The notes under the pieces: generated by a model
Told to the model about the DNA's origin: nothing
Database searches by the model: none
Seen by the model: the letters and a program-made list of their open reading frames with translations, nothing else
From: a virus
Taxonomy: Duplodnaviria > Heunggongvirae > Uroviricota > Caudoviricetes
Reading direction: 5' to 3' (one strand)
Length of the DNA stretch: 45,506 bases
Virus record (IMG/VR): IMGVR_UViG_2563366923_000008
Span: 1 to 45,506 of that record
Program-made: the position numbers and the translations under genes
Part shown: in pieces, positions 5,801-44,957 of the stretch
How positions within the stretch are numbered: the stretch's first letter is position 1
Layout of the letters: each line of letters opens with the position of its first letter

Positions 5801-6224
5801 GGTATTTATCGTTCATCAGATGGACGGCAAAGCGGACCGCTGGAGTACGGTTTTCAACCGGGACAATTTCGGACGCAGTCGCATCTTCAACGATTACGGT
5901 CGGAGTAGGTGTGTAGGGGGCGTCAACGGAACCAGTAGACACACCAGCGGCTTTTGGCAGCCAGGTGCGCCCATCGTCCTGAAGCTCGTAGCGATCACAC
6001 CAGGTAAAATCAACTTCACCTTCTTTCGGCAGGCCGTCGACAACTGGGAAATCAGTGCGAATCGGTTTGGCGTAGTCCTTACCCCGACCTGTTTCGATAC
6101 CTGCATCTTCCAGCGCAACATCCAGCATCAGATTGGCGCGAGCCTCGGTTTTAGCAGTGAACCAGACCACTGCATCTTGCTTTCCGGATTTCTGAGTGGC
6201 TTTAACCACATTAAAGAATTCCAT
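2835..6224 (-). CDS. recE: Exodeoxyribonuclease VIII (RecE-like 5'-3' exonuclease)
   Basis: 1129 aa; N-terminal DFPVVDGLPKEGEVDFTWCDRYEL matches the RecE N-terminus from memory; long acidic linker; C-terminal nuclease domain; paired with the RecT-like gene. Confidence 0.7.
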   Translation of the reverse strand: MEFFNVVKATQKSGKQDAVVWFTAKTEARANLMLDVALEDAGIETGRGKDYAKPIRTDFPVVDGLPKEGEVDFTWCDRYELQDDGRTWLPKAAGVSTGSVDAPYTPTPTVIVEDATASEIVPVENRTPAVRFAVHLMNDKYQTHVTKEQQLAASEMSLDEGNTYLHSLLVARNDVPATAKLSLNAEWKMIRAVKDIFTPDEEHEPRLIAAFMSDWVNTDAGDRNQLVEDWRSGKLQLLKTETSNAADVTTGQDLTVEDGIQTDENGRAEGGVVDGEVDTEEQSQQTQQPNLIVVATLPFRQRVLAQFIGDGEYLYHIDAGQKNEIVRLEMDTDDAYVQNLLLAAENVEAFKKAIEHDIHKVVNAVKKVFPVDGKIPELATLIQFLKLWFATDHIDRGILVREWAAGNRISSVQRTDSGTNADGGYVTDRGPDAHHTLDTLDLEIACALLPMDFNHFEIPGSILRRAKEIVTKKEEPWKSWSNILRNQPGVLGVNRTAIFNLVRIAPENIHLTPVAHLEFVNQTMTAAFNSAVELLPLHETEPAAQEIPQPEGKESPRKSFCTHEENLQRVREEGARRRAEEAAAQPQKVEQELVKNVGNGIFDVTALLQNSATHGTKKATETTSNVQVQETVSDEKQAGDEVQPGESSLESGEESDTSQKDDVDQNTDSVAKNSDSVSQTEPVAAQTEPEAQSDEPAVVYPAYFEPGRYEGLPNEVYHAANGISSTQVKDARVSLMYFNARHVEKTIVKERSAVLDMGNLVHALALQPELLDAEFSVEPVIPEGAFTTAATLRAFIDEHNASLPALLSADDIKVLLEEYNATLPPQVPLGANLEETAQNYMALPADFQRIDGDQKQTATAMKACIKEYNATLPPPVKTSGSRDALLEQLAIINPDLVAQEAQKPAPLKVSGTKADMIQAVKAVKPDAVFADELLDAWRDNPEGKVLVTRQQLSTALNIQKALLAHPTAGMLLTHPSRAVEVSYFGFDEETGLEVRVRPDLEIDLDGVRIGADLKTISMWNVKQESLRARLHREIIERDYHLSAAMYCETAALDQFFWIFVNKDENYHWIAIIEASAELLELGMLEYRKAMRNIATGFDTGEWPAPITADYTDELNDFDLRRLEALRTQA

Positions 6225-7411: not shown

Positions 7412-8293
7412 TTATGCTGCAGTTTGCAATATTAACCTTGCTGCATGCTCGGCAGTGCTTACAGAAGTGATTGATACATCGTAGGTGTTAGCCAAGTCCT
7501 GTAAAGAAAGGTACGCACTATTTATTGATGCTATGTGCCTATCATTGTATGCAGGGCTATCATCTTCCGGTTTGTAGATAATCATTTGATGAGTTTCTCT
7601 TGGAAAAATATCGCCTTGCCTTTTTATCATTGATAAGTCAGATATTTTTGCTTTTCCATCCTTAACCTGCTCATTCAAGTTGTGGGGTAACAGTTTTCCG
7701 GTGTTGATAGCTGCATGATCGCTTAGATAGAAAATTTTAGCCGGTCTGTGTCCATCACTAAAGGTGAAGCTTCTATTGAAAAAAATATCCCTGCGTCCGT
7801 CAGCGCTGATAACCGCATCAAAGATTTGAATTGGCCACCTGTCTTTAGTTCTTGATTGCTTAGCTGGCAACCCATCGGAATCTTCTTCAGCCTCAAGGAG
7901 TGATGACAAACTCGATGACAATGATACCGCTTGGCGGAGTATGCCAACAGGGCTTGATGACGCAGCATTCCTTACGGCGCTTATAGTGACGCCTGTAACT
8001 GGAGGATGCCATGATACGAAATCCCCCTTAGCAGCCAGATGCAACTTCAAACTCGACAAAATCAGATCAACCACATTGATAAATGCTGGTGCTTTGAAGC
8101 CATACATAGCTTCTATAACTTCTTTTCTGATTGCCGGCTTAACTAAAATTTCACCAGATGATGTTATCGTGGCAACTGCTACCGTGAGCCGCTCTCCTGA
8201 GCCGATCATTGGTTCAAGATAAACAGATGCCCAGCGCCCTGATGTTGCAGGCATAGCAGGAGCTGACTTAAGAAGCTGATCAAGATTTAGCAT
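7412..8293 (-). CDS. Hypothetical 293-aa protein, second gene of the cI-downstream cassette
   Basis: ATG start overlaps the upstream gene stop by 14 nt (translational coupling); AT-rich; no motif recognised. Confidence 0.7.
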   Translation of the reverse strand: MLNLDQLLKSAPAMPATSGRWASVYLEPMIGSGERLTVAVATITSSGEILVKPAIRKEVIEAMYGFKAPAFINVVDLILSSLKLHLAAKGDFVSWHPPVTGVTISAVRNAASSSPVGILRQAVSLSSSLSSLLEAEEDSDGLPAKQSRTKDRWPIQIFDAVISADGRRDIFFNRSFTFSDGHRPAKIFYLSDHAAINTGKLLPHNLNEQVKDGKAKISDLSMIKRQGDIFPRETHQMIIYKPEDDSPAYNDRHIASINSAYLSLQDLANTYDVSITSVSTAEHAARLILQTAA

Positions 8294-9044
8294 CGTATAT
8301 CATCTGTGTTTGTTGGGGCTTGATTTGATCATAAAGAATGTCTCCTAGTAACTCAATTCTAGATGAAAGGAAAGACATTATTTGATTTTTCTCTTTACCT
8401 TGAACTGTTTCGGATATCTCTCCATCTAATAGCGTTAGGGTGTTACTCTTGCAAGACATGGTCCAAGCTCTCGCCTCATTTGCCATCATCTGAACGGCTA
8501 TATCATTACTTCTATCGAGTATGTAAGTTGCTACCTGCAGCAATTGATTGGAGTAATAATCTATCCCGAAAAGGTCAGGGGCAAGACCTTGGGGAATTGC
8601 CGATTCATGGTCTATCAGGAAGAAACCATCACCATTGAAAAGCAAATTTCCGTTGTGACGGTCATCCATCGCAATCCACTCATCAAAATAGCTAGCTTTT
8701 TTCAATAACGGCCATGATGCCAAAGCATCAGAAACGGCCTGATCTGAAGAGTTAGAAACATACTTCATGAAACTCGGATAGGTAGCATCAACACTACCAA
8801 AAAATGCTTTGTTTGAGCTGTCAAACAGTAGTACTGGCTCGGGTATAGGCAGGGATAGAGCTCTTCCCAAGGCTGCGCAGGTTATTTCTATAGAAATGCT
8901 CCTAGAAGATATTTCTTTTGCAAAAACAACAATCTCTTCTGGTTCGCTATTTTCTTTTATCAAAAGAGCAACGCCCTTTATCGGGTGATGTTGCCCTTCG
9001 TCAATTGCAATGCCGCCAGGTAGTAACCTTCCTATTCTGATCAC
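8280..9044 (-). CDS. HipA-like (PI3/4-kinase-fold) putative Ser/Thr kinase core, 254 aa
   Basis: GTG start with AGAGG SD 7 nt upstream; motif WIAMDDRHNGNLLF followed 8 aa later by FFLIDHESA resembles the HipA catalytic loop (D-x-H-x-x-N) plus downstream Asp; about 100 nt downstream of cI on the same strand. Confidence 0.6.
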   Translation of the reverse strand: MIRIGRLLPGGIAIDEGQHHPIKGVALLIKENSEPEEIVVFAKEISSRSISIEITCAALGRALSLPIPEPVLLFDSSNKAFFGSVDATYPSFMKYVSNSSDQAVSDALASWPLLKKASYFDEWIAMDDRHNGNLLFNGDGFFLIDHESAIPQGLAPDLFGIDYYSNQLLQVATYILDRSNDIAVQMMANEARAWTMSCKSNTLTLLDGEISETVQGKEKNQIMSFLSSRIELLGDILYDQIKPQQTQMIYDAKS

Positions 9045-9145: not shown

Positions 9146-9856
9146 TCACACAAGTCTCAACTTAGTTTCTACAGCCACACCAATGATCCGGCAATTCCCA
9201 TTGATGGGAACCAATGGCCATTGAGGGTTTAAGCCCTTCAGGTACTTCTGGCCCCCATCAATAATCAGCTTTTTGAATGTCGCTTCGTTTGATTCGGATA
9301 GCTTTGCGATCACAAGGCTGCCATTTACTGGCTCTCGGCCGGTATCAAACAAAACGTAGGTACCCTCTGGTATGCTGAGCCCGACCGGGGCAGTCATGGA
9401 TTCCCCCTCGACCAACAACCAGAACGCATCCCCCTGGATGTGAGCGTCTGATTCTAGCCATAGATCGATATCTTTAAGTGCATACGGCTCGCACGCTTCC
9501 GACCAATGCCCAGCCTGAATCTTGCTTAATACAGGGTATTTAATGCCTGGGGTGTACTGGCCTGCATACTTGGCATTCGATGTAGCGGAAGCACTCATTG
9601 CAGATATTTCTTTCGCAAGGCTGGGGCTAAAATCAGAGACATCCACCTGGAGGGCTCTGGCAAAAACAGCAGCCACGGCAGCATTAAGGGCATTCCTGCC
9701 ATTCAAGTAATGCCCAACGCCCCCCTGAGATATGTCTAGCATGTCAGCTATTGATTGCTGTGTTATCCCAAGCTCTTTTTTCTTGGCTTCATAGAGGGCT
9801 TTCAGCCTTTCTGCGTCAGCGATCTGAGCCGATGTCAGTGTCTTTTTCTTTTCCAT
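9146..9856 (-). CDS. cI: CI repressor (Cro/C1 HTH plus LexA-like S24 autopeptidase domain)
   Basis: Near-colinear with lambda CI from memory (LKALYEAKKKELG...SMTAP...FKKLI...LNPQWP...); ATG at 9856 has no SD, consistent with a leaderless PRM transcript; track start at 9862 is TTG. Confidence 0.9.
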   Translation of the reverse strand: MEKKKTLTSAQIADAERLKALYEAKKKELGITQQSIADMLDISQGGVGHYLNGRNALNAAVAAVFARALQVDVSDFSPSLAKEISAMSASATSNAKYAGQYTPGIKYPVLSKIQAGHWSEACEPYALKDIDLWLESDAHIQGDAFWLLVEGESMTAPVGLSIPEGTYVLFDTGREPVNGSLVIAKLSESNEATFKKLIIDGGQKYLKGLNPQWPLVPINGNCRIIGVAVETKLRLV

Positions 9857-9890
9857 TTTCAAATAGTAATACCAATGTTCTTATTTTAAA

Positions 9891-10538: not shown

Positions 10539-11558
10539 ATGGCAAATACTGCCGAAGTAATCAATTTCCCTGTGCCGGAAAAGGTACAGCAGGAGAGTCG
10601 CATGGCTGATCTGGACAATGGCTATCTGCGCCTTGCTAACCAGATTCAGGACGCCTTGTGTGTAGTGGAGCTTTCGGGGCGCGAATTTCGCGTGCTGAAT
10701 GCAATTGTTCGCCTGACGTATGGCTGGTCGAAAAAAGAAGACCGGATCGCTAACAGCCTCATCGCTGACAAAACCATGCTGGCGGTTAAGCACGTTTCTG
10801 AAGCGGTTCTCAGCCTTGCTTATCGCAACATCATCAAGGTTCGCAGGATTGGGCAAACACGATACATCGGGATCAACACCTGTCTGGATGCATGGGCTTA
10901 TACCAAACCGAAATGCCCTAAATGTCCGGTGAGTTTTCCGGTCGCTGAAGTTGAAACGCAGGTTATCACCATCCCTGAAATTAGGGATAGCAGAATAGCC
11001 GCGCCAACCATCCCTGAAAACAGGGATAACCATCCCCAAAAACAGGGAAAGGTATCCCCGGAAACAGGGAACACCAAAGACATTCTTTCAAAGACAAATA
11101 TAAAAACAGATCTAACCCCTATAGTCCCCGCTGGGGACGAGTGTGGAAAACCAGATCCCGATCCGGTTATTCAGGAGCAGCCGAAGACCGACCCTGTAAG
11201 ACTGGTTTTCACCCACTGGCAGAAAGAACATGACCACCCGTCAGCAAAACTCGACGACAAACGCCGCAAGCGCATCAAGGCGCGACTGGCGGAAGGCTTC
11301 ACTGTGGACGAGCTGTGCCGGGCCATAACTGGCGCAAAAGGCGATCCGTGGCTTATGGGAAAGAACCCTTCCAGAAAGCGCTATGACGGCATTGAGACGC
11401 TCCTGCGAGACGCTGCTCAGGTCGAAAAACTTCGTGATATGGCCGGCGATGCTCACGCAATGGCAATTGCTCAGGGCCAGTACTCAGCCACAACGGCTCG
11501 CAACCTTGAAACCCTCCAGCGCTGGGCTGGCGGCACTGATTCAGGAGAACTTTTCTGA
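10539..11558 (+). CDS. O: Replication initiator protein O
   Basis: N-terminus colinear with lambda O (LDNGYLRLAN...RVLNAIVRLTYGWSKKEDRI); iteron repeats embedded mid-gene. Confidence 0.85.
   Translation: MANTAEVINFPVPEKVQQESRMADLDNGYLRLANQIQDALCVVELSGREFRVLNAIVRLTYGWSKKEDRIANSLIADKTMLAVKHVSEAVLSLAYRNIIKVRRIGQTRYIGINTCLDAWAYTKPKCPKCPVSFPVAEVETQVITIPEIRDSRIAAPTIPENRDNHPQKQGKVSPETGNTKDILSKTNIKTDLTPIVPAGDECGKPDPDPVIQEQPKTDPVRLVFTHWQKEHDHPSAKLDDKRRKRIKARLAEGFTVDELCRAITGAKGDPWLMGKNPSRKRYDGIETLLRDAAQVEKLRDMAGDAHAMAIAQGQYSATTARNLETLQRWAGGTDSGELF
10971..11071 (+). repeat. Replication origin iterons (4 copies of about 18 bp) inside the O gene, followed by an AT-rich stretch
   Basis: ATCCCTGAAATTAGGGAT (10971), ATCCCTGAAAACAGGGAT (11010), ATCCCCAAAAACAGGGAA (11032), ATCCCCGGAAACAGGGAA (11054); AT-rich 11078-11110. 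Confidence 0.7.
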
Positions 11559-16647: not shown

Positions 16648-16784
16648 GCCGTGACGTTATCGAACGCATCCGCGACCGCTGGCAAAAGCTTCGCCTCCTG
16701 CGTAGCCGCGGCACCGTGCTGGTCGACTACAAAATATTACGCAATTTCGTCCGTATCTATAAGCGCCTGGGAGAAGCAGCATGA
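16644..16784 (+). CDS. Small protein (46 aa), YlcG-like position
   Basis: ATGA overlaps at both ends (rusA stop and Q start); [46 protein letters not shown]. Confidence 0.35.
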
Positions 16785-17470
16785 CAGCTCAATACTTGGA
16801 ATTTGTTCGCCAGCAGCTGATAGTGGCCACCGCCGATCTGAGTGGTGCGACGAAAGGGCAACTGGTAGCTTTTGCAGAGAACGCGCAATTTACCGCTACG
16901 GCGCGCAGCCGTGGCCGGAAGAAGGTGTATAGCGAGGTGAAGCAAAAAATGGTTAACCCGGATGGACCGCCGATGAGCGGCAGCCAGTCCCGCGCTAAGG
17001 GTTCCTCAATCGCTCTCGTTCTGCCCGTTGAATACTCGACAGCCAGCTGGCGCCGCGCCCTCCTGTCGCTGGAAGACCACCAGAAATCCTGGTTGCTGTG
17101 GAACTACAGCGACAATATCCGCTTTGAGTATCAGGTAGCGATAACACAGTGGGCATGGGAAGAATTCCGTGATCAACTCGGCGCTAAGAAAGTGGCCGGC
17201 AAGACGATGGAGCGGCTGAAGAAACTGATATGGCTGGCGGCACAGGACGTGAAAGCAGAGCTGGCGGGTAAGTATGTATATCAGCACCAGGACCTTGCAG
17301 CCCTGTGTGGCGTTAAGCCTGATAACTGGTGCCATAACTACGCTGATTACTGGCGGGCTATGTGCGCCATTTTTAAGCGGCTTGATAGCGACTCTCTTCT
17401 CTGTGCTGTGAGAACACGATCACAACAAAAAGCGACTTTTTCGCAGCAGGGTCTTGCAAAAGTCAATTAA
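16781..17470 (+). CDS. Putative late antiterminator Q
   Basis: 229 aa directly upstream of the PR'/tR' region and lysis cassette; call is mainly positional. Confidence 0.6.
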   Translation: MTAQYLEFVRQQLIVATADLSGATKGQLVAFAENAQFTATARSRGRKKVYSEVKQKMVNPDGPPMSGSQSRAKGSSIALVLPVEYSTASWRRALLSLEDHQKSWLLWNYSDNIRFEYQVAITQWAWEEFRDQLGAKKVAGKTMERLKKLIWLAAQDVKAELAGKYVYQHQDLAALCGVKPDNWCHNYADYWRAMCAIFKRLDSDSLLCAVRTRSQQKATFSQQGLAKVN

Positions 17471-17723: not shown

Positions 17724-17753
17724 TTGACCAGAAAATTAACATGTTGTTAATCT
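17724..17753 (+). promoter_or_regulatory. Candidate late promoter PR'
   Basis: TTGACC (17724-17729), 18-nt spacer, TAATCT (17748-17753). Confidence 0.45.
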
Positions 17754-17759
17754 ATTCGT

Positions 17760-17923
17760 GTGGTGAATCCCCCTATGCGGAGGGGCGACCAGTCAAACTT
17801 TTTTGTCCAGGTTTGTTTGCGCGGAACTAGTCGGCTGGGGCTGTTCCACCGGGAGGCACCCGGCGCCACCTCCTTGACGGTATTGTTATTTTTCATGCCT
17901 GTTCGTCCGAGCAGGCTTTTTTT
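17760..17923 (+). ncRNA. Putative short PR'-initiated, tR'-terminated transcript (lambda 6S RNA analogue, Q-modification target)
   Basis: Promoter at 17724-17753 and strong terminator GCCTG-ttcgtccgag-CAGGC plus T7 at 17897-17923; no convincing ORF between them. Confidence 0.3.
17897..17923 (+). terminator. tR'-like Rho-independent terminator
   Basis: GCCTGttcgtccgagCAGGC followed by TTTTTTT. Confidence 0.55.
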
Positions 17924-18332
17924 GCCCGCATTATCTTCATTGAAAACTGGCAACTCAGAGAATCATCCAAATTAAAAAAGCAGCAACGAGAGCGATTACT
18001 AATACATTCTTCGCTTTTTCTCTTCTGCTGGCCTTCACAAAAGGATTCACTATCCGGCAGTGGCTACACACAAGTGATTCTGGGTTAATTAACTTTCCGC
18101 AGTAGGGGCAGGGCTTGATAATCATTGGTACTAATTAAGTTGTGAGAACGTAGTCTCATTTAACCACATTTATCGAGTTGTTTTACTAATGGTCTAGTTA
18201 TTTCAGACATATTCATCAATTTCAGGCTCACGGGAATCATCCGCTACGTGCTTTGTTGATAAATCCAGCCCGTGAAGCCTGACCCTTTTCAAACACACAC
18301 ACAGCGCCATCCGAAAAATCGGAGGTGAGGCT

Positions 18333-18610
18333 ATGACCAGAATGAGCACCATTTACAGCAGACTTTCATATGGAACAGGAACCACGCTGACCGCTGCGGT
18401 GTATCAGCGAAGGCATATGCCGAAACAGCTAAAACAGCAAAAGAGGTGTCCTGGATGTTGGCCGACAGAATTGCAGGGTTAAGCCTGAGCGACTGGGCAA
18501 TTATTGTCGGTATCGCATGCACTGTTATTACCTGTGCAGTGAACTGGTATTTCCGCTGGAAAGAACGGGAGGATCGGCGCAATGGCTATGCCACCAAAGC
18601 TGAAGAATAG
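18333..18610 (+). pseudogene. Pinholin (S21-like class II holin) interrupted by a 47-nt insertion, leaving two small ORFs (18333..18482 and 18455..18610)
   Basis: Frame A gives MTRMSTIYSRLSYGTGTTLTAAVY... (SAR/TMD1-like); frame B gives [42 protein letters not shown]... (TMD2 plus basic tail); deleting 18405-18451 restores one S21-like frame. Confidence 0.5.
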
Positions 18611-19154
18611 CGTTATTGCAGCGATACCCGCTGGCGCTATTGCTATCGCTGCGGCGTTGATTACTGGCCCAACGGGTAATGATGGCCTTGAAGGTGTACG
18701 CTATCAGCCTTATCGGGATGTTGTTGGAGTGTGGACTGTATGCTGGGGCCATACTGGTAAAGATATTATCCTCGGCAAGACCTACACCAAAGCAGAGTGC
18801 CAGGCGCTGCTGGATAAAGACCTGAATATTGTCGCCCGACAGATTAACCCATATATCAATGCTCCGATCCCCGAAACGATGAGAGGGGCGCTGTACTCAT
18901 TTGCGTATAACGTAGGCGCGGGAAACTTCAAAACCTCCACACTGTTACGAAAAATCAACCAGGGTGATTCGAAAGGCGCATGCGAACAACTGCGGCGCTG
19001 GATCTATGCTGGTGACAAACAGTGGAAGGGTTTAATCACGAGGCGTGAGATTGAGCGTGAAGTTTGCCTGTGGGCAGAGAAACCTCAGGTTCTGGGGGAT
19101 GGACTCGGGCCGCTTAACCCTGGCATTCCGGTATCAGTTCCGGGGGTATTCTGA
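18582..19154 (+). CDS. SAR endolysin (GH24 lysozyme with N-terminal signal-anchor-release domain)
   Basis: N-terminal [26 protein letters not shown] then [19 protein letters not shown]...[13 protein letters not shown]; near-colinear with phage 21 R from memory; start may be ATG 18588. Confidence 0.85.
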
Positions 19155-19696
19155 TGAAACCCAGAAAAATTACGATTGTTGCGGTTCTGCTGGTGGCTGT
19201 CGTAATCATTATTGCAGTGCTTAGCGTATTACTGGTTCGTAGCCGCTCAGCTCTTGAAACAGAACAGAGTGAGAATCGGGTATTACGTAATGATAACGCG
19301 CTGCAGGCGACGGTGATAACTACACAGGCTTTCAACTTCAATCGGTTTAACCAGATAGCAGAGAACGCCAACCGCCTTAACTCGCTGATCGATGCCGGTA
19401 CTGAGAAAACTGTCATCGAATACCGGGAGATTCTCCGACGTGAAAAGACCTGTGATCTGCCTGTTCCTGCTGATGTCGCTGGTGGGCTGCTCAAATACGC
19501 GTACCGTTTACGTGCCAGCGCAATGCACCCCGATACCGGGAACACTAACGCAACCGATGATAGTACCGCTGCCGCCAGCTCAATGACGTATTGCCAGGCC
19601 GTCCTCTGGATTGAACCTTTGCTGGCAACGATAGAAAAGGGTAATGGCAATTTTTCCGGAATACGGGAAATAGAGAACGTAAGAGCCTCGCAATAG
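19154..19696 (+). CDS. Rz-like i-spanin
   Basis: 180 aa with N-terminal TM helix (IVAVLLVAVVIIIAVLSVLLV) and coiled-coil periplasmic domain; embedded +1-frame lipoprotein ORF. Confidence 0.75.
   Translation: MKPRKITIVAVLLVAVVIIIAVLSVLLVRSRSALETEQSENRVLRNDNALQATVITTQAFNFNRFNQIAENANRLNSLIDAGTEKTVIEYREILRREKTCDLPVPADVAGGLLKYAYRLRASAMHPDTGNTNATDDSTAAASSMTYCQAVLWIEPLLATIEKGNGNFSGIREIENVRASQ
19392..19586 (+). CDS. Rz1-like o-spanin lipoprotein embedded in Rz
   Basis: Lipobox LVGC followed by a Pro-rich mature peptide CSNTRTVYVPAQCTPIPGTLTQPMIVPLPPAQ; start uncertain (ATG 19392 or GTG 19440). Confidence 0.6.
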   Translation: MPVLRKLSSNTGRFSDVKRPVICLFLLMSLVGCSNTRTVYVPAQCTPIPGTLTQPMIVPLPPAQ

Positions 19697-19726: not shown

Positions 19727-20020
19727 ATGGAAAAAGAACAAAACGGCGCTGCAATCTTTCCTGTAGCAAAAGACTTTAAATTCTGTCTTGGGCAACTAGT
19801 GAACTTGCGCATTAGTGATGAGTTCGGCGAGGTACAGGCCCGCTCCCAGCATGTGACAGGTGAGAACCAGTACTTTATTTACTACCAGGCCGCCAATAAA
19901 TGTGCGACTGAGCGCTGGTATTCCGAATCGCAACTGGTAGCGGTGGAAGATGACCGTTCTCCGGGTATGCCTGTCTTTGGTTGTGTTGAGTTGCCGGAAG
20001 GTGCGGCGGTTGAAGAGTAA
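19727..20020 (+). CDS. Hypothetical protein
   Basis: 97 aa, good RBS. Confidence 0.5.
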   Translation: MEKEQNGAAIFPVAKDFKFCLGQLVNLRISDEFGEVQARSQHVTGENQYFIYYQAANKCATERWYSESQLVAVEDDRSPGMPVFGCVELPEGAAVEE

Positions 20021-20148
20021 GGCATTACAGCAGGCATTCACTGAGTGCCTGCGACAAAGCTAAATGGCATCAAGCATGCGATGATGATTGATTAATAATT
20101 GAGCTATGCATGGTATAATAAGCCACATTCATTGAAAGGTTAACCACC

Positions 20149-20313
20149 ATGTCATTTTTCGATTATGCAATGCAGCGTGTTGGGCTTGCAGCCAATACGA
20201 CTGTCATGTGCCCGATATGCGGACATAAATCCACACACTCGACCACGAAAGTACGCCAACAACAGGCGTTACTTTGCCCTAAATGTAAATCTCTGTTTGT
20301 CATTCACAGGTAG
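20149..20313 (+). CDS. Small zinc-ribbon protein (54 aa), stand-alone moron
   Basis: MSFFDYAMQRVGLAANTTVMCPICGHKSTHSTTKVRQQQALLCPKCKSLFVIHR; own extended -10 promoter (TGgTATAAT 20111-20119) and a perfect terminator. Confidence 0.5.
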   Translation: MSFFDYAMQRVGLAANTTVMCPICGHKSTHSTTKVRQQQALLCPKCKSLFVIHR

Positions 20314-20338
20314 TGGGTCGCGATACAAATAACCCCAG

Positions 20339-20362
20339 GCCTCGCAATTGCGAGGCTTTTTT
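20339..20362 (+). terminator. Rho-independent terminator of the zinc-ribbon moron
   Basis: GCCTCGCAATTGCGAGGC followed by TTTTTT. Confidence 0.6.
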
Positions 20363-20505
20363 ATACCAGCAGTAAACGCGCATCTCACGCGCATATTAAC
20401 GAGAGCCTTTCAGTAAGCGAGCCTGAGAAATGCCGTTATAGGTGGCGACCTCTCTCGGGCGGCTTTTCTGTGAGACAGGCTCACTTTCTAAAAGGTAAAG
20501 ACGCT

Positions 20506-21003
20506 ATGAAAGCAATCACGCTTTTTAATACACCGATCCGTGTTGATGAATCAGGAATGATCTGCCTCACTGATATGTGGAAAGCCAGTGGTAAAAGTGA
20601 ATCTGAATCTCCGTACCACTACCTGCGAAACAAGCAGACCAAAGAGTTCTTAGCCGAGCTGGAGAAAAACCACGAATCTGTGGTTTTTACTGAGCGCGGT
20701 GTACACGGTGGAACATATGGCGGGAAGTTTGTTGCTTACGATTATGCGGCTTGGTTAAACCCCGGGTTCAAGTACGCGGCCTATAAAGTCCTCGATGACT
20801 ACTTCACTGGAGAACTTCAGCATCGCAACAGCTTAAGTGCGCAGCTCAACATGAAATGTCATGAGTTTGACCAGAAGAAAGACATGGCGAGCTTCTGCGG
20901 ACAAGGGCTGGCGGCATGGCGCTATACGAAGCCAGTGTTGGTCGCTGAGATTAACTCCCTGGCTAACCAGCTGCAGATTACGATCCCCGGGCTTCCGGGA
21001 TGA
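20506..21003 (+). CDS. KilA-N domain protein (antirepressor-like)
   Basis: MKAITLFNTPIRVDESGMICLTDMWKASGKSESESPYHYLRNKQTKEFLAELEK fits the KilA-N pattern; track start 20470 is GTG, ATG at 20506 has a better RBS. Confidence 0.7.
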   Translation: MKAITLFNTPIRVDESGMICLTDMWKASGKSESESPYHYLRNKQTKEFLAELEKNHESVVFTERGVHGGTYGGKFVAYDYAAWLNPGFKYAAYKVLDDYFTGELQHRNSLSAQLNMKCHEFDQKKDMASFCGQGLAAWRYTKPVLVAEINSLANQLQITIPGLPG

Positions 21004-21257
21004 GTGATCGTGTCATTGAATGCGCCTCCAGAGCGGGGCGCGACTTCTCAGAGTTCATGAAAGGCGAGAAGGGCATGATGGAAGCATTGGCCTCGGTGGA
21101 TGAGTTTGGCGAGCAGCTGCGCCTCAACGGCTGTGTCAATCATCACTTTGTTAGCTACATGATGCGGAACTCGATCATGCAGGCATTCATGGACATGGCA
21201 AAAGCCGAGAGGAAAGAAGAGCGCCGGCGTAAGCGAGCGGAAGCAAAAGCGAAGTAG
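21000..21257 (+). CDS. Hypothetical protein translationally coupled to the KilA-N gene
   Basis: ATGA overlap; 85 aa with basic Lys/Arg/Glu-rich C-terminus. Confidence 0.5.
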   Translation: MSDRVIECASRAGRDFSEFMKGEKGMMEALASVDEFGEQLRLNGCVNHHFVSYMMRNSIMQAFMDMAKAERKEERRRKRAEAKAK

Positions 21258-21391
21258 CCATTACAAAGCTCATCTGCGGGTGGGCTTGATAATGGGGATG
21301 AATATCGCAATTTTTATTGTGGTTGACATAATTAGCTGATTTGCAATGATTATTTTGCTGTTGGTATAATTAATCCTCTACTACGAGAGGG

Positions 21392-21676
21392 ATGACTATG
21401 CTGACAATAATTTTGTTTGGTGCTGGCTGGAAAGGTGATGTTTGGGCTCTCGAGAGCTACAGTCCCGTTATTAAGGCTCCTGATCGGACATTTAGGCTTC
21501 TGAAAAGCTCTGGGGGTGCCCCGATCTTCGAGGATGCTGAGTTTGATGTTTTCGAATATCAGCTTGGTGATGAAATTTATCTGGTTGGCTGTCATGGGAA
21601 TAAGCCTAGTGACGATGTGATTATGTCACACATCCAGCATGGTGACCCTAAGCCGAAACCATACAAAACACTGTAA
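21392..21676 (+). CDS. Hypothetical protein (94 aa), stand-alone moron
   Basis: Own promoter TTGCAA-18 nt-TGgTATAAT (21341-21370), SD, and terminator. Confidence 0.55.
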   Translation: MTMLTIILFGAGWKGDVWALESYSPVIKAPDRTFRLLKSSGGAPIFEDAEFDVFEYQLGDEIYLVGCHGNKPSDDVIMSHIQHGDPKPKPYKTL

Positions 21677-21696
21677 CCGCCTCCGGGCGGTTTTTT
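21676..21696 (+). terminator. Rho-independent terminator of the 94-aa moron
   Basis: CCGCC-tccg-GGCGG followed by TTTTTT. Confidence 0.55.
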
Positions 21697-21786
21697 ATTG
21701 CCATCACCGAACAGGCATTACAGCAGGCATTCCCTGAGTGTCTGCGATAATGCTTTATTATCATTGTTAACGACGGGGTAAAAATC

Positions 21787-21984
21787 ATGAAAATTTTAGT
21801 TGAACACAACTCCAAAGTTATCTGGATGCGTGATAATGAAACATCTGAAGGTGTGGCCTGCAGGAGTTATATTAAGGACGGCGTACAGCAAAAGATTATT
21901 GCCGCCCTTGAGGATGCCTTAGCTCAGGCAAAGGGTGAGTTATTATGCTGGAATGACTCTGATGCTGTGAGTGACATTTCCTGA
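21787..21984 (+). CDS. Hypothetical small protein
   Basis: 65 aa ORF with plausible RBS. Confidence 0.4.
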   Translation: MKILVEHNSKVIWMRDNETSEGVACRSYIKDGVQQKIIAALEDALAQAKGELLCWNDSDAVSDIS

Positions 21985-22023
21985 GCCACCACCTAAATCA
22001 ATCGTAACGTTCCAGTATCCCAT

Positions 22024-22278
22024 ATGAGGCGCAACCAACCGGGTCGGAAGTCTCTCGAAGAAACCACCACCACCATGATGATGAAAACCCCGGTTATTTT
22101 TATAACTATTGAAGTTACTGTCGGTAGTGAGAAGGATGTTGCACTGGTGCGAGCAGTCAACAACAACGACATCACCTGCATTCAGGTGCATTCGTTTGTG
22201 AAGAAATTGCATAAGTCTCCTTATCAAGAGGCAATCAGCACTCCTCTCAAGGCTGGTACGCCAACGTCCCACCGCTGA
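22024..22278 (+). CDS. Hypothetical small protein
   Basis: 84 aa ORF; start uncertain. Confidence 0.3.
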   Translation: MRRNQPGRKSLEETTTTMMMKTPVIFITIEVTVGSEKDVALVRAVNNNDITCIQVHSFVKKLHKSPYQEAISTPLKAGTPTSHR

Positions 22279-22380
22279 CGGGCTGAGCCATTACCTTACC
22301 CAGACTCAACGATAAGTAACATCCTGATATTCAGACAGTAACTGTAATCGATAATGCTGAAGAATAGGCAGTAAATACAG

Positions 22381-23028
22381 GTGACTGATATGGCAACACT
22401 GAAGGATTTATCAAACCAGTTAAAGCAACTGCAAAAGCAAATCCCGTTTGCCACAGCTCAGGCGATGACAAAAGTTGTACGCCAGATTGAGTTGGCTCAG
22501 AAGACGGCATTCGAACGACATCTGGAGAGCCCCACGCCGTTTACCGTTAAATCAGTTGGTTCGGTGGCGGCAAGAAAGAACAATCTGACCGCAAAGGTTT
22601 TTGTCCGCGATACCGCTGCTGGTTATCTGGAACCATTCGAGTTTGGCGGAGAGCACAAGCTCAATAGCCAGGCTCTATTAAATCCCAAGAACGTTAAGCT
22701 AAACAAATACGGCAACATGCCGCGTAATAAGCTCTCACAGCTTAAAACAAAGGAAAATGTATTCGTAGGTGAGGTTGATGGCGTTAACGCTGTCTGGCAG
22801 CGTAAGAAGCCGATGAAAGCTAAGAAGCGACGGGCCAAACGTTCCGCTAACGGGACGCGAAGACCGAAACGCAAACAGCGTTCTCCAAAGCTTTTGATCC
22901 GGTTTGGTGATGCGCTACCTGTGACTCCAGTGCTGGGGTATATGGATAGGTCCCATACCATGGCGAACGCACTGCTACCGTCTGCTTTAAATCAGGCGAT
23001 AGCAGAAGCCATCAGGACGGCAAAATAA
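22381..23028 (+). CDS. Hypothetical protein with very basic C-terminal region
   Basis: 215 aa; KKPMKAKKRRAKRSANGTRRPKRKQRSPK tract suggests nucleic-acid binding. Confidence 0.5.
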   Translation: MTDMATLKDLSNQLKQLQKQIPFATAQAMTKVVRQIELAQKTAFERHLESPTPFTVKSVGSVAARKNNLTAKVFVRDTAAGYLEPFEFGGEHKLNSQALLNPKNVKLNKYGNMPRNKLSQLKTKENVFVGEVDGVNAVWQRKKPMKAKKRRAKRSANGTRRPKRKQRSPKLLIRFGDALPVTPVLGYMDRSHTMANALLPSALNQAIAEAIRTAK

Positions 23029-23038
23029 AAGCAGTAAC

Positions 23039-23542
23039 TTATAAGTTAATTTCGCAAGCTTTTATGAAGCTGTTTACTGCAGTTGTCGATCCAGAAACAT
23101 TGGCTGACATGGAATGCTGGTTTCCGCCATCCTTTGTTTGCACACCAACTAACACTTTGGATTTCGCCCCCTGAAGCTGCTTAAGCACTGTTTTTAGTTG
23201 GTCCGCGTCATCCGATTGAATCTGGAGGCTCTGAACATTACGTCTTGAAAGGGTAGCATCGAGCTTCACTGCGGTATTCCCGTCGACCTTCATTATCAGG
23301 TCCATTGGTACCTCTGATAGTGATTCGGTGCTTTTATCCATTTCAACGTATGCCGCCGATAGCTTTTCTTTAGTGCAGTCAAACACAATGGCGCCATTGT
23401 CGGATGAAACCTCGCCAAGCATCATTGCTTTCTTACCACCAGAGAAAAGGTCATCTTCAGTATTAGTTACCCACTGGGCATGAGCAATTGGTGATGCCAG
23501 CACTGCGGCTACGAAAGTTATTTTGATTATATTGTTACCCAT
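23039..23542 (-). CDS. Secreted or periplasmic protein of unknown function (opposite-strand moron)
   Basis: ATG at 23542 with AAGGAG SD at 6-nt spacing; signal peptide MGNNIIKITFVAAVLASPIAHA|QW; AT-rich; only minus-strand gene in the late region before the fibre switch. Confidence 0.6.
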   Translation of the reverse strand: MGNNIIKITFVAAVLASPIAHAQWVTNTEDDLFSGGKKAMMLGEVSSDNGAIVFDCTKEKLSAAYVEMDKSTESLSEVPMDLIMKVDGNTAVKLDATLSRRNVQSLQIQSDDADQLKTVLKQLQGAKSKVLVGVQTKDGGNQHSMSANVSGSTTAVNSFIKACEINL

Positions 23543-23685
23543 TACATTCTCCTTGTATTGAATAGGAATAATCATAGTCGGAGCGAATGGTCGAAGCCAT
23601 AAAAAAATGGGTCCTTCCTGAGACTTTTGTAAGGTACGGGCATTGCGCGCCGCGGTGTTTTCCTAGCTACAACTTTCAGATTTGT

Positions 23686-23832
23686 GTCCCATGTCCCACC
23701 TCTGGCGATCATTACGGACACCTCGCCAGCTCTGGCTATTCCAGTTTATTCCAGTGGGACATTCTGGTGGGACATGGCAAAAATGTCCCAGACGAATGTC
23801 CCACCCCAGAAAATGTCCCAGGTGATGTCCCA
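23686..23832. repeat. Array of ATGTCCCA / TGGGACAT repeats immediately upstream of and overlapping the terS start (candidate terminase-binding or cos/pac-associated sites)
   Basis: GTCCCA at 23686 and 23693; TGGGACAT at 23755 and 23768; ATGTCCCA at 23783, 23796, 23813 and 23825, the last overlapping the terS ATG. Confidence 0.6.
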
Positions 23833-24401
23833 TGACCACGATGAACCAGAGTCAGTACGCACAACATTCAGGTGTGGATCGCAAAACAATTGGCCGGTGG
23901 ATTAAAGCCGGGCGCTTCATTGTGATGGACGGAGACCTGATTGACGTAGAGGCCAGCGATGCGGCATTGAAGAAAAACCGCGATGGCAAAGACCCGCGTG
24001 CCTCGAACGCGAAGAAAAAGAAAACTCCCGTCGTTAGCGATAACGATGATGACGGTGATGAAATCAATAAAACTGTCCGCCAGATAATGCTCACTGAAGG
24101 GGCAGATCTTTCGAGAGAGGAAGCGGGACGTATCCGCGAGAATTACATGGCCCTACAGGCAAAGCTGCAGTATGAAAAAGACAGCGGCCAGCTTATTGAG
24201 CTGACAGCAGCCGAGGAGGTTTTATTCAACGCCTTTCGCCAACAGCGTGATGCCTGGCTTAACTGGCCGTCCAGGGTGGCGCCGCTAATGGCTGCTGATC
24301 TGGATGTACCGGCGGACAGGATGACAGAGGTGCTGATTGAACATGTCCACAAACACATCTCAGTCCTCGGAGAGCCAGAGTTTAACCCGGCAGAAGATTG
24401 A
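23832..24401 (+). CDS. Terminase small subunit (N-terminal HTH)
   Basis: 189 aa; N-terminal QYAQHSGVDRKTIGRWIKAG HTH; acidic linker; directly upstream of the large terminase. Confidence 0.7.
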   Translation: MTTMNQSQYAQHSGVDRKTIGRWIKAGRFIVMDGDLIDVEASDAALKKNRDGKDPRASNAKKKKTPVVSDNDDDGDEINKTVRQIMLTEGADLSREEAGRIRENYMALQAKLQYEKDSGQLIELTAAEEVLFNAFRQQRDAWLNWPSRVAPLMAADLDVPADRMTEVLIEHVHKHISVLGEPEFNPAED

Positions 24402-26466
24402 GCGTCTTGAATTAAGCGTCCGCAAAGGCTGGACACCCCCGCCGCGTATCAGTGTGCCGCAGTGGGCAGATGACTATCGTAAGCTGGCAAAAGAGGCTGG
24501 GAGCACTTCGGGAAACTGGGAAACATCGACGGTAGAAATTGCCCGCGGACCGATGCTTGCCGCGACGGAGTCCGGGGTTCATATCATCACTGTAATGTGC
24601 TGTACCCAGTTGATGAAGACAGCACTGCTGGAAAACCTTTTTGGCTATTTTGCCCACCTCGATCCTTGTCCGATACTGCTGCTGCAGCCGAAAGAAGAAG
24701 CCGCTGAACAGTTTTCGAAAGAGCGTATTAGCCCGCTGGTAAGGGTGACGCCGGTACTGCGTAAAATCATCGGTGATTCGAAACAGAAAAGCTCGAAAGA
24801 AACCATTCTTTACAAGGCATTCACTGGCGGATTTCTGGCGCTGGCGGGTGCTGGTAGCCCTGATAACCTTGCGCGTCGTCCGATTCGTGTCCTGCTGGCG
24901 GATGAAGTGGACAAGTACCCGATAACCCGCGAAGGCGATCCAATTGCGCTGGCCGAAGAGCGTACAGCGACATTTGGCCTGACCTGGCTGTCTGTACGCG
25001 CCTGTTCGCCGACGGTGGAGGATGAGAGCCGCATTGCTGACAGCTACGCCGACTCCGATCAGCGCCGGGCATCTGTGGTTTGCCCGCACTGTGGCCACCG
25101 CCAGTTCCCCGACTTTTTCAAACACGTTCAGTGGCCGAAAGAGGGAGATAAACACCTGACTAAATCGGCGATGCTCTATTGCGAATGCTGTGGTAGTGGC
25201 TGGTCCGAAGGACAGCGCCTCAGAGCTCTGCACACTATTCGATGGCATCAGACGCGCCCATTTGAGTGCTGCGGGGAGCGGCACTCACCGCTGATGGATT
25301 ATGACCTTGCCTGGCGGGCGGCAGACGAGGGCAGCGTTGAAAAGGTCTGGCAATGGTCAGAGTCGGAACGGCATGCGGTCTATCGCGCAATCTGCCCCTC
25401 CTGTGGAAAGGAGGCAGTCGATAACCACCACGCGGGGTACCAGGCATCCAAGCTTTTCAGCCCCTGGCAAAAAGATAAGCCGTCGGATATTGCGAAAAAA
25501 TATATCGATGCGAAGGGCGATCCGGATAAGGAACAGGCGTGGTGGAATACCCAGATGGGGCTTCCGCACCGACCTAATCATGGGAAACAGCTCCCTGTTG
25601 ATGTTCTGCTGGCGCGCCGGGAAATATTTCCGGCCGTCGTTCCGGACGGGGTGGCATTGTTAACAGCTGGAGTTGATACCCAGGACGATCGCTTCGAAAT
25701 TACGATCACCGGCTGGGGGAGAGATGAAGAATCGTGGTCGGTCGCGCATGACGTTATTTATGGTGACCTTGAGACGGAAGAACCCTGGAAGCGACTGGAT
25801 GCATACCTGAAACAGATCTGGCGACGTGGTGACGGGCGCGGCCTGAATATCATGGCAACGTGCATGGACTCCGGCGGCCACCATACGCAGAAGGTATACG
25901 AATTCGCCAAAGAGCGTCTTGGCCGTCGTGTCTGGGCAATTAAGGGGGAGTCTGCACAGGGAGGCAAACGCAATCCTGTCTGGCCGACCAAACGACCATC
26001 ATCGAAAAGCAAAGCCAGTTTCCGCCCTGTCATTCTGGGGGTTAACTCAGCGAAAGACGTGATACGCGGTCGCCTGCATCTTGAGCCACCCAAACCTGGC
26101 GCCGCCGCTGCGGGTTATATGCATTTTCCTGACGATCGCGATCTCGGGTACTTCAATCAGCTGCTGGCGGAGCGACTGGTTTACAAAGTCATTTCCGGGC
26201 AGCGGTACAGTATCTGGGAAGCAATACCAGGACGAGCTAACGAAGCGCTTGACTGCCTCGTTTACAGCTATGCCGCGCTGTGCGGTCTCAAACATATGGG
26301 GTTAAAACTCAACGTCCGGGCCGCCAACCTCGAAGCCGATCCGGATAAGTTCCTGCCAGCGCCAGTTGGACAGGAAGAAAAAATCAATTACGAGCTGCCG
26401 GGTGCGGTTATTGAAGAACCAGCGCCGGTCAAACGTAAGCGAATATCGCAACTCCTGCCGAAATAA
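24343..26466 (+). CDS. Terminase large subunit (lambda gpA family)
   Basis: About 700 aa with ATPase region (VLLADEVDKYP) and C-terminal nuclease; track start 24337 is TTG, ATG at 24343; overlaps terS. Confidence 0.85.
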   Translation: MSTNTSQSSESQSLTRQKIERLELSVRKGWTPPPRISVPQWADDYRKLAKEAGSTSGNWETSTVEIARGPMLAATESGVHIITVMCCTQLMKTALLENLFGYFAHLDPCPILLLQPKEEAAEQFSKERISPLVRVTPVLRKIIGDSKQKSSKETILYKAFTGGFLALAGAGSPDNLARRPIRVLLADEVDKYPITREGDPIALAEERTATFGLTWLSVRACSPTVEDESRIADSYADSDQRRASVVCPHCGHRQFPDFFKHVQWPKEGDKHLTKSAMLYCECCGSGWSEGQRLRALHTIRWHQTRPFECCGERHSPLMDYDLAWRAADEGSVEKVWQWSESERHAVYRAICPSCGKEAVDNHHAGYQASKLFSPWQKDKPSDIAKKYIDAKGDPDKEQAWWNTQMGLPHRPNHGKQLPVDVLLARREIFPAVVPDGVALLTAGVDTQDDRFEITITGWGRDEESWSVAHDVIYGDLETEEPWKRLDAYLKQIWRRGDGRGLNIMATCMDSGGHHTQKVYEFAKERLGRRVWAIKGESAQGGKRNPVWPTKRPSSKSKASFRPVILGVNSAKDVIRGRLHLEPPKPGAAAAGYMHFPDDRDLGYFNQLLAERLVYKVISGQRYSIWEAIPGRANEALDCLVYSYAALCGLKHMGLKLNVRAANLEADPDKFLPAPVGQEEKINYELPGAVIEEPAPVKRKRISQLLPK

Positions 26467-29239: not shown

Positions 29240-29830
29240 ATGGCAAAGAAAAAGACGTTTAGTTTTGCTCACCTCATTGGTCTTGGCCCTTCCGCTTCTG
29301 AGGAAGAAGAGGATAAAAAAGCCAAAAAAGCGAAAGCCCGTCGCGCGGAAGAGGATGAGCGCGAAGATGATGCCGATGATGATGAGCGCGACGACGACGC
29401 GGAAGAAGACGAACGCGACGATGATGCTGAAGATGACTGCGATGATCCGGATGCGTCAGAAGATGATGATTCTGAAGACGACGGCGACGACGATCGCAAA
29501 GAGAGTAAGGCGGTAAAAAATGCACGCGCTGCTGAGCGTAAACGCTGCGCCCGTATTTTCGGCAGTAAGCATGCAGCTGCGAATCCTTCACTGGCCGCGT
29601 CACTGGCTTTCAATACCGGGATGAGTTCTGCGGCAGCAATTAATGTCCTAGCCTCTTCGGCTCCGGCCGCAGCCGCATCTCAGCCATCCCGTAAACGCTC
29701 TCTCGATCAGCGTATGCAGGAAAGCCACCAGGTCCGGCTTAATCCGGATAGCGGACAGAAAGAGACCGGAAAGTCTGCGCTGGTAAGTAAAATGACCGGC
29801 CTCTACAACTCCACAAGAGGAGAGAAATAA
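29240..29830 (+). CDS. Putative scaffolding protein with acidic tandem-repeat region
   Basis: 196 aa between protease and decoration/capsid genes; three 27-bp repeats encoding ER(E/D)DDA(D/E)(D/E)D. Confidence 0.55.
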   Translation: MAKKKTFSFAHLIGLGPSASEEEEDKKAKKAKARRAEEDEREDDADDDERDDDAEEDERDDDAEDDCDDPDASEDDDSEDDGDDDRKESKAVKNARAAERKRCARIFGSKHAAANPSLAASLAFNTGMSSAAAINVLASSAPAAAASQPSRKRSLDQRMQESHQVRLNPDSGQKETGKSALVSKMTGLYNSTRGEK

Positions 29831-44905: not shown

Positions 44906-44957
44906 AAATCTGGTGATGCTTCGCCGTTTCTCCTGTTTTCATAACAGGAGAAATCCC

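Follow-up and report, generated by a model that had tools for sequence, protein, structure and literature searches.

Sequence evidence for a conserved hairpin family at cistron 3' ends and cassette joints in the late operons of temperate Enterobacterales phages

The DNA analysed here (the window; 45,506 nt, positions 1 to 45,506 of the Caudoviricetes record IMGVR_UViG_2563366923_000008 in IMG/VR) is a lambdoid-type prophage, its genes identified by homology, and our concern is with an imperfect hairpin of about 40 nt that occurs three times on the + strand of its late region. Since the window runs in the order Q antiterminator (16781–17470), lysis genes, hairpins and terminase, the three hairpins lie inside the Q-dependent late transcript, in the interval between lysis and packaging. 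Upstream of the hairpin array, on the same strand, is the lysis cassette, recognized by homology to annotated phage lysis genes and comprising an endolysin (18582–19154) and an Rz-like spanin (19154–19696); downstream of it the packaging module begins with a gpA-type large terminase (24337–26466, + strand).

The array, all of it on the + strand, opens with a 97 amino acid (aa) open reading frame (ORF; 19727–20020) whose TAA stop codon abuts copy 1 of the hairpin (20020–20062). There follow a moron composed of a promoter-like site (20092–20119), a 54-aa YnfU-like zinc-ribbon ORF (20149–20313) and a terminator-like hairpin (20337–20358), and then a KilA-N/ORF11CD3 gene (start at 20470 or 20506, end at 21003) with an overlapping 85-aa partner ORF (21000–21257), the two corresponding to the hkbK/hkbL cassette of HK620. 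Directly 3' of the TAG of the 85-aa ORF lies copy 3 (21256–21297), which is diverged. Beyond it a second moron is made up of promoter-like sites (21323–21370), a 94-aa ORF (21392–21676) and a terminator-like hairpin (21675–21692); copy 2 (21713–21755) is placed 21 nt 3' of that terminator-like hairpin and is followed by a 65-aa ORF (21787–21984). Neither the 97-aa nor the 94-aa ORF gave a Pfam match.

The first-pass annotation of the window had described a 34-mer, GGCATTACAGCAGGCATTCACTGAGTGCCTGCGA, at 20021–20054, with a second copy bearing 2 mismatches at 21714–21747. This was borne out, none of 100 dinucleotide-preserving shuffles yielding such a match, and the similarity of copies 1 and 2 extends to 42–43 nt at 90% identity. 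Direct reading likewise agrees that neither copy has a T-tract, and each does follow a gene or a terminator, copy 1 the TAA of the 97-aa ORF and copy 2 the terminator of the 94-aa ORF; the genes said to lie between them (YnfU-like zinc ribbon, KilA-N/ORF11CD3 with its 85-aa partner, and the 94-aa ORF) are indeed there. The proposed 7-bp stem, GCAGGCA/TGCCTGC, is real but was understated, RNAfold giving an inner helix of 10 bp with a triloop. Similarly, copies 1 and 2 do flank the named genes, but they do not bracket a single block, because copy 3 is present between them; the three copies therefore delimit separate cassettes.

Copies 1 and 2 both carry the stem GCAGGCA/TGCCTGC (class A). The outer helix of copy 1 is degraded, with CAAAG in place of TAATG; that of copy 2 is intact (8 bp), and in this copy a C-to-U change makes one G-C pair G.U. 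Copy 3 has the stem AAGCTCAT/GTGGGCTT and a tetraloop, with the flanks CATTACA and GATAATG kept, and the same variant is found after hkbL in HK620 and after an Rz1-like gene in Escherichia coli ET846. By RNAfold, copies 1, 2 and 3 fold on the + strand with energies of −19.7, −23.5 and −20.8 kcal/mol (z-scores −3.6, −5.8 and −4.5, respectively), as compared with −14.6, −14.3 and −11.7 kcal/mol on the complementary strand. A covariance model scores copy 1 at 60.7 bits on the + strand versus 21.4 on the − strand and copy 2 at 67.3 versus 25.9, and recovers the diverged copy 3 on the + strand at 23.8 bits (E 6.5e-4).

Sought in other phages and prophages, the element proved to belong to a large family that marks the joints of swapped cassettes. 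It occurs in 358 of 5426 complete E. coli genomes, at no more than 2 places in each (median 1); exact-pattern scans of IMG/VR returned 85 contigs for the first pattern and at least 120 for each of four others; and BLAST placed it in 39 deposited phage records, including phi80, mEp390, cdtI, phiP27, ST64B, Fels-1, ZF40 and many Klebsiella prophages. A fairly strict pattern, applied to one genome per species of bacteria and archaea (185,579 genomes), matched 36 stretches, all in Enterobacterales, among them Citrobacter, Pectobacterium, Rahnella, Erwinia, Kosakonia and Ewingella. The enterobacterial hairpin is also carried by two records assigned to other hosts, OM284015.1 (Elizabethkingia phage EKP1) and PP818812.1 (Actinobacillus phage vB_Apl-pPE4), the latter with a KilA-N cassette that is 99% identical. 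Because hosts outside the Enterobacterales are unexpected, this suggests host misassignment or contamination of the two records.

In the annotated phage and prophage records examined, the place of the element is always between the holin–endolysin–spanin genes and HNH, terminase or cos, in the same orientation. Of 160 unique contexts, 155 have a lysis-gene homologue on the same strand no more than 2.5 kb upstream (0 on the opposite strand), and 125 of 144 have a homologue of terminase or HNH, again on the same strand, in the 4 kb downstream; in none of the contexts were lysis genes downstream, and wherever orientation could be judged the element points the same way as the late genes. Moreover, a + strand ORF of at least 40 aa ends 0–4 nt before CATTA in 179 of 317 contexts (mode 2 nt), while the median distance to the next start codon is 34 nt (interquartile range 22–88). 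The stop codon being close and the distance to the start codon variable, the element is tied to the 3' end of the upstream cistron. In 20 contexts that cistron is a homologue of the 97-aa ORF, L33 of phiP27 among them.

Across the family the element measures 38–43 nt, with a shared block of about 38 nt, CATTA-CA-G[N6]UUC-NNN-GAG[N6']C-GA-TAATG, beyond which flanking similarity is lost entirely on either side; what follows the hairpin in the 3' direction differs from locus to locus. The architecture consists of an outer helix (CATTA/TAATG), a 2x2 internal loop in which CA stands opposite GA, and a 10-bp inner helix, the middle six pairs of which are free to covary below a UUC/GAG cap with a U.G wobble and a variable triloop. 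Beside class A, the stem classes include GCAGCCC/GGGCTGC (cdtI, phiP27, Fels-1), GAAGCTC/GAGCTTC, AAGCTCA/TGGGCTT (copy 3 and the HK620 copy after hkbL) and AGGCCA/TGGTCT (the second HK620 copy). Most variants were gathered with patterns that fix some positions, at which conservation is partly by construction, and our statements on conservation use only positions left free in the relevant scan. On that basis 219 of 230 hits retain ACA/GA as the internal loop, about 92% of 185 retain the U.G wobble beneath the cap, and the triloop varies widely.

Among 93 distinct variants, 96% of cells are paired, and double-sided changes were counted in 66 cells as against 15.7 in shuffles, a value reached by 0 of 500 shuffles; compensatory change affects 7 pairs. 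When the 3' partner was slid as a control, pairing fell to 29–43%, and RNAalifold recovered the inner helix independently. With degeneracy made symmetric (R opposite Y), a scan counted 65 GC, 98 GU, 10 AU and 0 AC at the closing pair of the inner helix, beside the internal loop, and 133 GC, 37 GU, 2 AC and 1 AU at the fifth pair of the same helix. Folding energies in the family are −19.7 to −23.6 kcal/mol on the + strand versus −10 to −15 on the − strand, covariance scores are 57–72 bits in the sense versus 24–37 bits in the antisense direction, and the conserved U.G would read as a C.A mismatch on the opposite strand. Since G.U is tolerated and A.C is not on the late-mRNA strand, these comparisons place selection on the + single strand, that is, in the sense of the late mRNA, and the late mRNA itself is most likely the selected single strand. 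What characterizes a structured cis-acting RNA element, pairing kept by compensatory substitutions on the transcribed strand, is found here. It follows that the element is not a passive recombination scar, as had been one suggestion of the first-pass annotation, because its structure is under selection with compensatory changes; the alternative suggestion, that the copies share a site for binding RNA or protein, is made plausible by the conservation of hairpin base and internal loop.

The companion suggestion, that the element marks module boundaries, is upheld, in that homology to other phages starts or stops at its edges. The proteins encoded next to the element form 73 clusters on the upstream and 119 on the downstream side, and the 244 contexts with both neighbours combine 70 upstream with 108 downstream families in 186 distinct ways (upstream, for instance, DUF2560, an Acb2/Tad1-hairpin-domain protein, DUF826 and Rha; downstream HNH, TerS, DUF2513 and DUF2560). 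The same element variant is seen with different left flanks and with different right flanks. Of 370 loci, 28 hold arrays of 2–3 direct copies, 311–1693 nt apart, and further ones emerge with the covariance model; where arrays were inspected, a small ORF precedes most copies, and in several, including that of the window, neighbouring copies differ in stem class. Stem class is more closely associated with the upstream ORF than with the downstream gene (adjusted mutual information 0.19 versus 0.07).

The Acb2/Tad1 hairpin-domain gene is among the commonest directly upstream of the element (for example at locus L250; upstream cluster 3, 14 contexts). The domain is that of the family of anti-CBASS and anti-Thoeris nucleotide sponges, so that counter-defence genes are among those carried in the hairpin-delimited interval.

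Individual joints show the pattern of exchange. The zinc-ribbon unit that travels with copy 1 (20022–20364, 343 bp) recurs at 99.4% identity in many loci behind unrelated upstream DNA. Window positions 20339–21294 match HK620 hkbK/hkbL at 98.4%, and the homology stops at 21294, within copy 3. At locus L009 the 97-aa ORF and the element are joined straight to window position 22390, so that 20058–22389 is lacking, and at L375 a different upstream ORF is followed by the element and then by the identical 65-aa ORF. In E. coli ET846 (L397; NZ_CP100895.1, 3001–3310) the copy-3 variant comes right after the Rz1-like gene and is followed by the same 94-aa cassette; window positions 21251–21558 are there joined to 21760–24500, so that 21559–21759, and hence copy 2, is absent. 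The 94-aa ORF has thereby lost its 3' end and its terminator, and copy 2 is gone as well, with the junction 5 nt past the end of copy 2; by sequence comparison the late region of ET846 is a natural deletion variant of that of the window. A precise loss of the 1.7 kb from copy 1 to copy 2, for which the first-pass annotation had proposed to check related phages, was found at none of about 400 loci; L009 and ET846 come nearest to it.

The comparisons described above show a structure selected on the + single strand, located at cistron 3' ends and coinciding with mosaic joints, and they point to a function of the element as RNA. We suggest that the element is a member of a hairpin family in the Q-dependent late operon of temperate Enterobacterales phages, in which the hairpin, placed in the late mRNA at the 3' end of the upstream cistron, would serve as a processing, stability or insulation signal; such roles are proposed by analogy with the RNase III sites of T7 and with REP (repetitive extragenic palindromic) stabilisers. 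Recognition would take place through the conserved hairpin base and internal loop by a putative partner. As a by-product, the roughly 40 conserved nt may supply short homology with which single-strand-annealing recombinases swap, insert or delete the flanking cassettes. The phage encodes RecT (1711–2829) and a RecE-like exonuclease (2835–6224), and enzymes of the RecET/Red type can use about 40–50 nt of homology; because about 40 nt are conserved across otherwise unrelated phages, the element could offer them a ready homology patch. The copies divide this part of the window into four units, made up of the zinc ribbon plus KilA-N with its 85-aa partner, the 94-aa moron, and the 65-aa ORF with DUF1883. 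Taken as a whole, an intercistronic 3' hairpin of the late mRNA that also serves RecET/Red-type cassette exchange, this proposal has in our judgement an even chance of being correct.

Two known kinds of intercistronic hairpin lend themselves to comparison with this proposal. In the T7 and T3 sites, the RNA is cut within the internal loop, so that the upstream mRNA ends in a protective 3' hairpin. These sites, reportedly described by Dunn and Studier in 1983 as intercistronic RNase III sites, separate the cistrons of a long phage transcript by hairpins that, like the element, set an upper stem of about 10 bp above an internal loop and a lower stem; the element differs in a lower stem of 5–8 bp, a symmetric 2x2 loop and the lack of any sequence relationship, and the likeness is one read from the nucleotide sequence. 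REPs number hundreds of copies per host chromosome in both orientations. The intercistronic hairpins of enterobacterial operons that they form, with the bacterial interspersed mosaic elements (BIME), are said to have been treated by Newbury et al. in 1987; they too are imperfect palindromes just 3' of stop codons and can stabilise upstream mRNA and act as recombination substrates, but the element is present at 1–2 copies per genome, exclusively in prophage late operons and in one orientation.

The closest described phenomenon is the PeSL (promoter-early stem-loop) of T4-like phages, a sigma-70 promoter with a terminator stem-loop that is repeated between the small non-essential ORFs of the hyperplastic region (Arbiol et al. 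2010, PMC2839356; Comeau et al. 2014, PMC4122927). Recombination between PeSL copies is described as inserting, deleting or replacing the intervening genes (PMC2839356), and PeSL cassettes as flanking ORFans and mediating modular shuffling (PMC2839356; PMC4122927). The two have in common a short conserved stem-loop motif between small ORFs that acts as boundary and shuffling site, and in our loci also a conserved motif flanks variable small ORFs and exchanges fall at the motif. In contrast to PeSL, the element contains neither promoter hexamers nor a U-tract, promoter-like sites lying 30–70 nt downstream in unrelated cassette DNA; it is found inside one long Q-antiterminated late transcript of temperate phages, whereas PeSL belongs to lytic T4-like phages; and it shows covariation, a conserved internal loop, abutment to stop codons and no sequence similarity to PeSL.

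Several points weigh against the proposed late-mRNA hairpin. The support consists of sequence comparisons, from which we infer the RNA role, and most of the variants compared were collected with patterns, so that their fixed positions are conserved partly by construction. Covariation and G.T asymmetry would look no different for a hairpin of + strand single-stranded DNA. Generic stabilisation of a 3' end does not call for a conserved internal loop, and the conservation of the unpaired ACA/GA bases points instead to a specific partner. RNase III substrates usually have about 20 bp or more; the geometry (10-bp upper helix, 2x2 loop and 5–8-bp lower helix, about 17–20 bp-equivalents) recalls the T7 type, in which two coaxial helices with an internal loop make up about two turns of dsRNA, but the total stem of about 17 bp is short for a classical substrate. 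Within the window, the outer helix of copy 1 is degraded, and before copy 2 the RNA upstream could already be protected by an intrinsic-terminator-like hairpin. Finally, the confinement of the element to one genomic interval could be explained by homologous spread alone.

The call for a specific partner leads to the first of the other explanations, in which the hairpin is not a general stability signal but an RNA operator: base and loop would be bound by a particular RNA-binding protein of phage or host, or by a Cas6- or ToxN-like endoribonuclease, which would so control translation or processing of the neighbouring genes. The conserved unpaired ACA/GA and UUC/GAG cap, set against a covarying stem and a varying triloop, are consistent with this, as is the + strand evidence (G.U over A.C, and the covariance scores in the sense direction). 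An operator of this sort, however, finds no consistently co-occurring nearby gene among the upstream and downstream clusters, the distance to the downstream start codon varies widely, and the element bears no evident likeness to type I-E or I-F CRISPR repeats or to ToxI, for which reason mimicry of such a repeat or of ToxI was also set aside. We consider the operator unlikely, though with some chance of being right.

A second explanation turns on the array organization. The hairpin may be an attC-like site, folded in + strand single-stranded DNA, at which a dedicated recombinase captures and excises units of ORF plus hairpin, making the lysis–terminase interval an integron-like array; we rate this as rather unlikely. 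There is a small chance, equally, that the hairpins are recombination or processing sites of a dedicated cassette system whose enzyme recognises the base and loop of the folded single strand, and it would be somewhat surprising if ORF-plus-hairpin units, those with anti-defence Acb2/Tad1 homologues included, were captured, excised or individually processed in such a system. As with attC, units of an ORF and an imperfect hairpin stand in direct repeat, mostly after a small ORF, conservation is seen at the hairpin base and in the unpaired bases of the internal loop but covariation in mid-stem, and one strand is relevant; the selection on one strand and the closer tie of stem class to the upstream ORF are also in keeping with it. 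The arrays, however, run to 2–3 units, and joints fall at both edges of the element; the same variant occurs with differing left and right flanks, so that nothing indicates a fixed point of crossover. Around the element lie lysis, accessory, HNH and terminase genes, with no recombinase gene linked, and in the window the sole tyrosine recombinase found is the prophage integrase (1–1194), about 19 kb away; a role as RNA accounts more simply for the strict co-orientation with transcription. An attC site has R''/R' boxes, RYYYAAC ... GTTRRRY, with extrahelical bases, and spans about 57–141 nt. The element ends in CATTACAG and CGATAATG, has no GTTRRRY or other R-box consensus, and at 38–43 nt is shorter than known attC sites, about half the minimum length; with no linked integron integrase, a true integron attC was rejected. 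A XerCD/dif-like site was likewise discarded on direct reading, since GCGATAATG resembles part of a XerC arm but the arms are spaced by about 27 bp instead of 6 bp.

It is also conceivable that the element has no function of its own for the phage, and that it spreads as a pure homology linker by moving useful cassettes, the hairpin mattering in the recombination step alone, where it might for instance expose single strands. The combinatorial shuffling of the flanks, the restriction to one syntenic interval, the presence of RecT and the RecE-like gene and a length that fits the short homology which RecET/Red enzymes can use could all be read in this way. Homology alone, however, selects neither for compensatory changes, nor for G.U over A.C, nor for placement 0–4 nt after a stop codon, and divergent stem classes lower the homology between copies, all of which makes the pure linker distinctly improbable.

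A palindromic operator in double-stranded DNA, bound by a dimeric protein, would account for a near-palindrome of about 37 bp with the conserved outer half-sites CATTACAG and CGATAATG. Yet the halves differ systematically (ATTC versus ACTC; CA versus GA) and that difference is itself conserved, the stems change sequence fully while keeping their pairing, and avoidance of A.C but not of G.U is meaningless in duplex DNA; such an operator is very hard to credit. A host repeat of the REP, BIME or miniature inverted-repeat transposable element (MITE) kind, which the first-pass annotation had set against its own reading and which the short, palindromic and repeated nature of the element might recall, or else chance or local duplication, can practically be dismissed, as no match is expected by chance, there are 1–2 places per genome in the minority of E. 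coli genomes that have it, the species survey yielded Enterobacterales stretches alone beside the many IMG/VR contigs, and all the contexts examined are in a prophage or phage late region.

The late-mRNA hairpin was, in addition, compared with other known identities. Rfam 15, searched with the whole window at the gathering threshold, gave an STnc100-type leader RNA (17728–17927, + strand, 85 bits) as its only match; at E up to 10, the segment 19980–20100 returned chance snoRNA fragments only, beside the element, and no Rfam family overlaps the element in phi80, ST64B, Fels-1, HK620, phiP27 or a Klebsiella phage. A coding role is excluded, as the frame ALQQAFTECLR-stop becomes ALQQPFSEGLR or ALQKLFTEELR in the covarying stem classes and the upstream ORFs stop before the element, in another frame. 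An intrinsic terminator is excluded by the absence of a U-tract, and the terminator scan lists the hairpins at 20337–20358 and 21675–21692 and none of the three elements. Identity with the phi80 'M3 RNA', a hairpin substrate of RNase P (PMC5499578; PMC10731613; PMC11143913), was unconfirmed and was dropped; the element is without a 3' RCCA, and a short transcript of phi80 from pR' to the terminator seems the likelier source of M3. A literature search for the sequence strings of the element and for such a hairpin found no description, and the family is apparently undescribed.

In the category of the moron, as in the lambdoid phages reportedly treated by Juhala et al. in 2000, an own promoter and terminator, not a shared boundary hairpin, are what defines the unit. 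The zinc-ribbon and 94-aa units conform to this as promoter–ORF–terminator insertions in the late operon; the hairpin is an extra element, common to otherwise unrelated morons.

The remainder of the window offers several further observations. The STnc100 match lies just 3' of the Q gene, in the place of the lambdoid pR' leader or of a 6S-like RNA; STnc100 also matches the equivalent place in Fels-1 and in a Klebsiella phage, where it adjoins a match to isrJ. In the early region, which also contains a CI-like repressor (9146–9862) and the O replication protein gene (10539–11558), a 22-nt unit, ACCATCCCTGAAATTAGGGATA, is repeated three times at 10968–11050 in the 5' part of the O gene, each unit being a small palindrome, and by their sequence these repeats look like origin iterons. 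Beside the repressor, a − strand ORF (8280–9044) has a sub-threshold match to HipA-like kinases (25.5 bits against a cut-off of 27) and may be a toxin or defence gene of the immunity region.

Close to the packaging genes, GTGGGACAT occurs four times at 23754–23804 as two inverted pairs with arms of 22 nt and a gap of 7 nt, some 30 nt upstream of a 189-aa ORF (23832–24401; no Pfam match) which itself precedes the gpA-type terminase; judged by its sequence and place, this array is a candidate binding site for the small terminase or a candidate cos-proximal site. Three 27-nt tandem repeats rich in GAA/GAT codons (29345–29425), inside overlapping + strand ORFs of the head region, would encode an acidic repeat. 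At the right end of the window, where there is a tail-fibre invertase, 36-nt inverted repeats (42986–43021 and 44872–44907, 1.85 kb apart) adjoin a gene of the resolvase/invertase family (44799–45506 region) and tail-fibre sequences matching P2-like phages, and the arrangement looks like an invertible tail-fibre segment for a host-range switch. Among 50,697 deposited phage genomes there is hardly a close relative of the packaging, head and contractile tail region as a whole (23600–45506): in the best case 7% of it is covered, and only at the tail-fibre/invertase end. The terminase end of this region has matches of 95–99% in IMG/VR loci.

Finally, the element is present in well-known laboratory phages (phi80, HK620, ST64B, Fels-1 and phiP27), in which experiments are easy to arrange, and it is a candidate for a new cis-acting RNA signal in late phage mRNA, the processing of which has been little studied. 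In temperate phages of Escherichia, Salmonella, Klebsiella, Citrobacter, Pectobacterium and their relatives, the interval between lysis and packaging is one of the chief places where morons and counter-defence genes accumulate. A conserved, covarying and strand-specific hairpin that follows a large share of these cassettes would give a landmark by which accessory and anti-defence cassettes could be located in prophages, and would offer a testable mechanism for the movement of such cassettes between otherwise unrelated phages.

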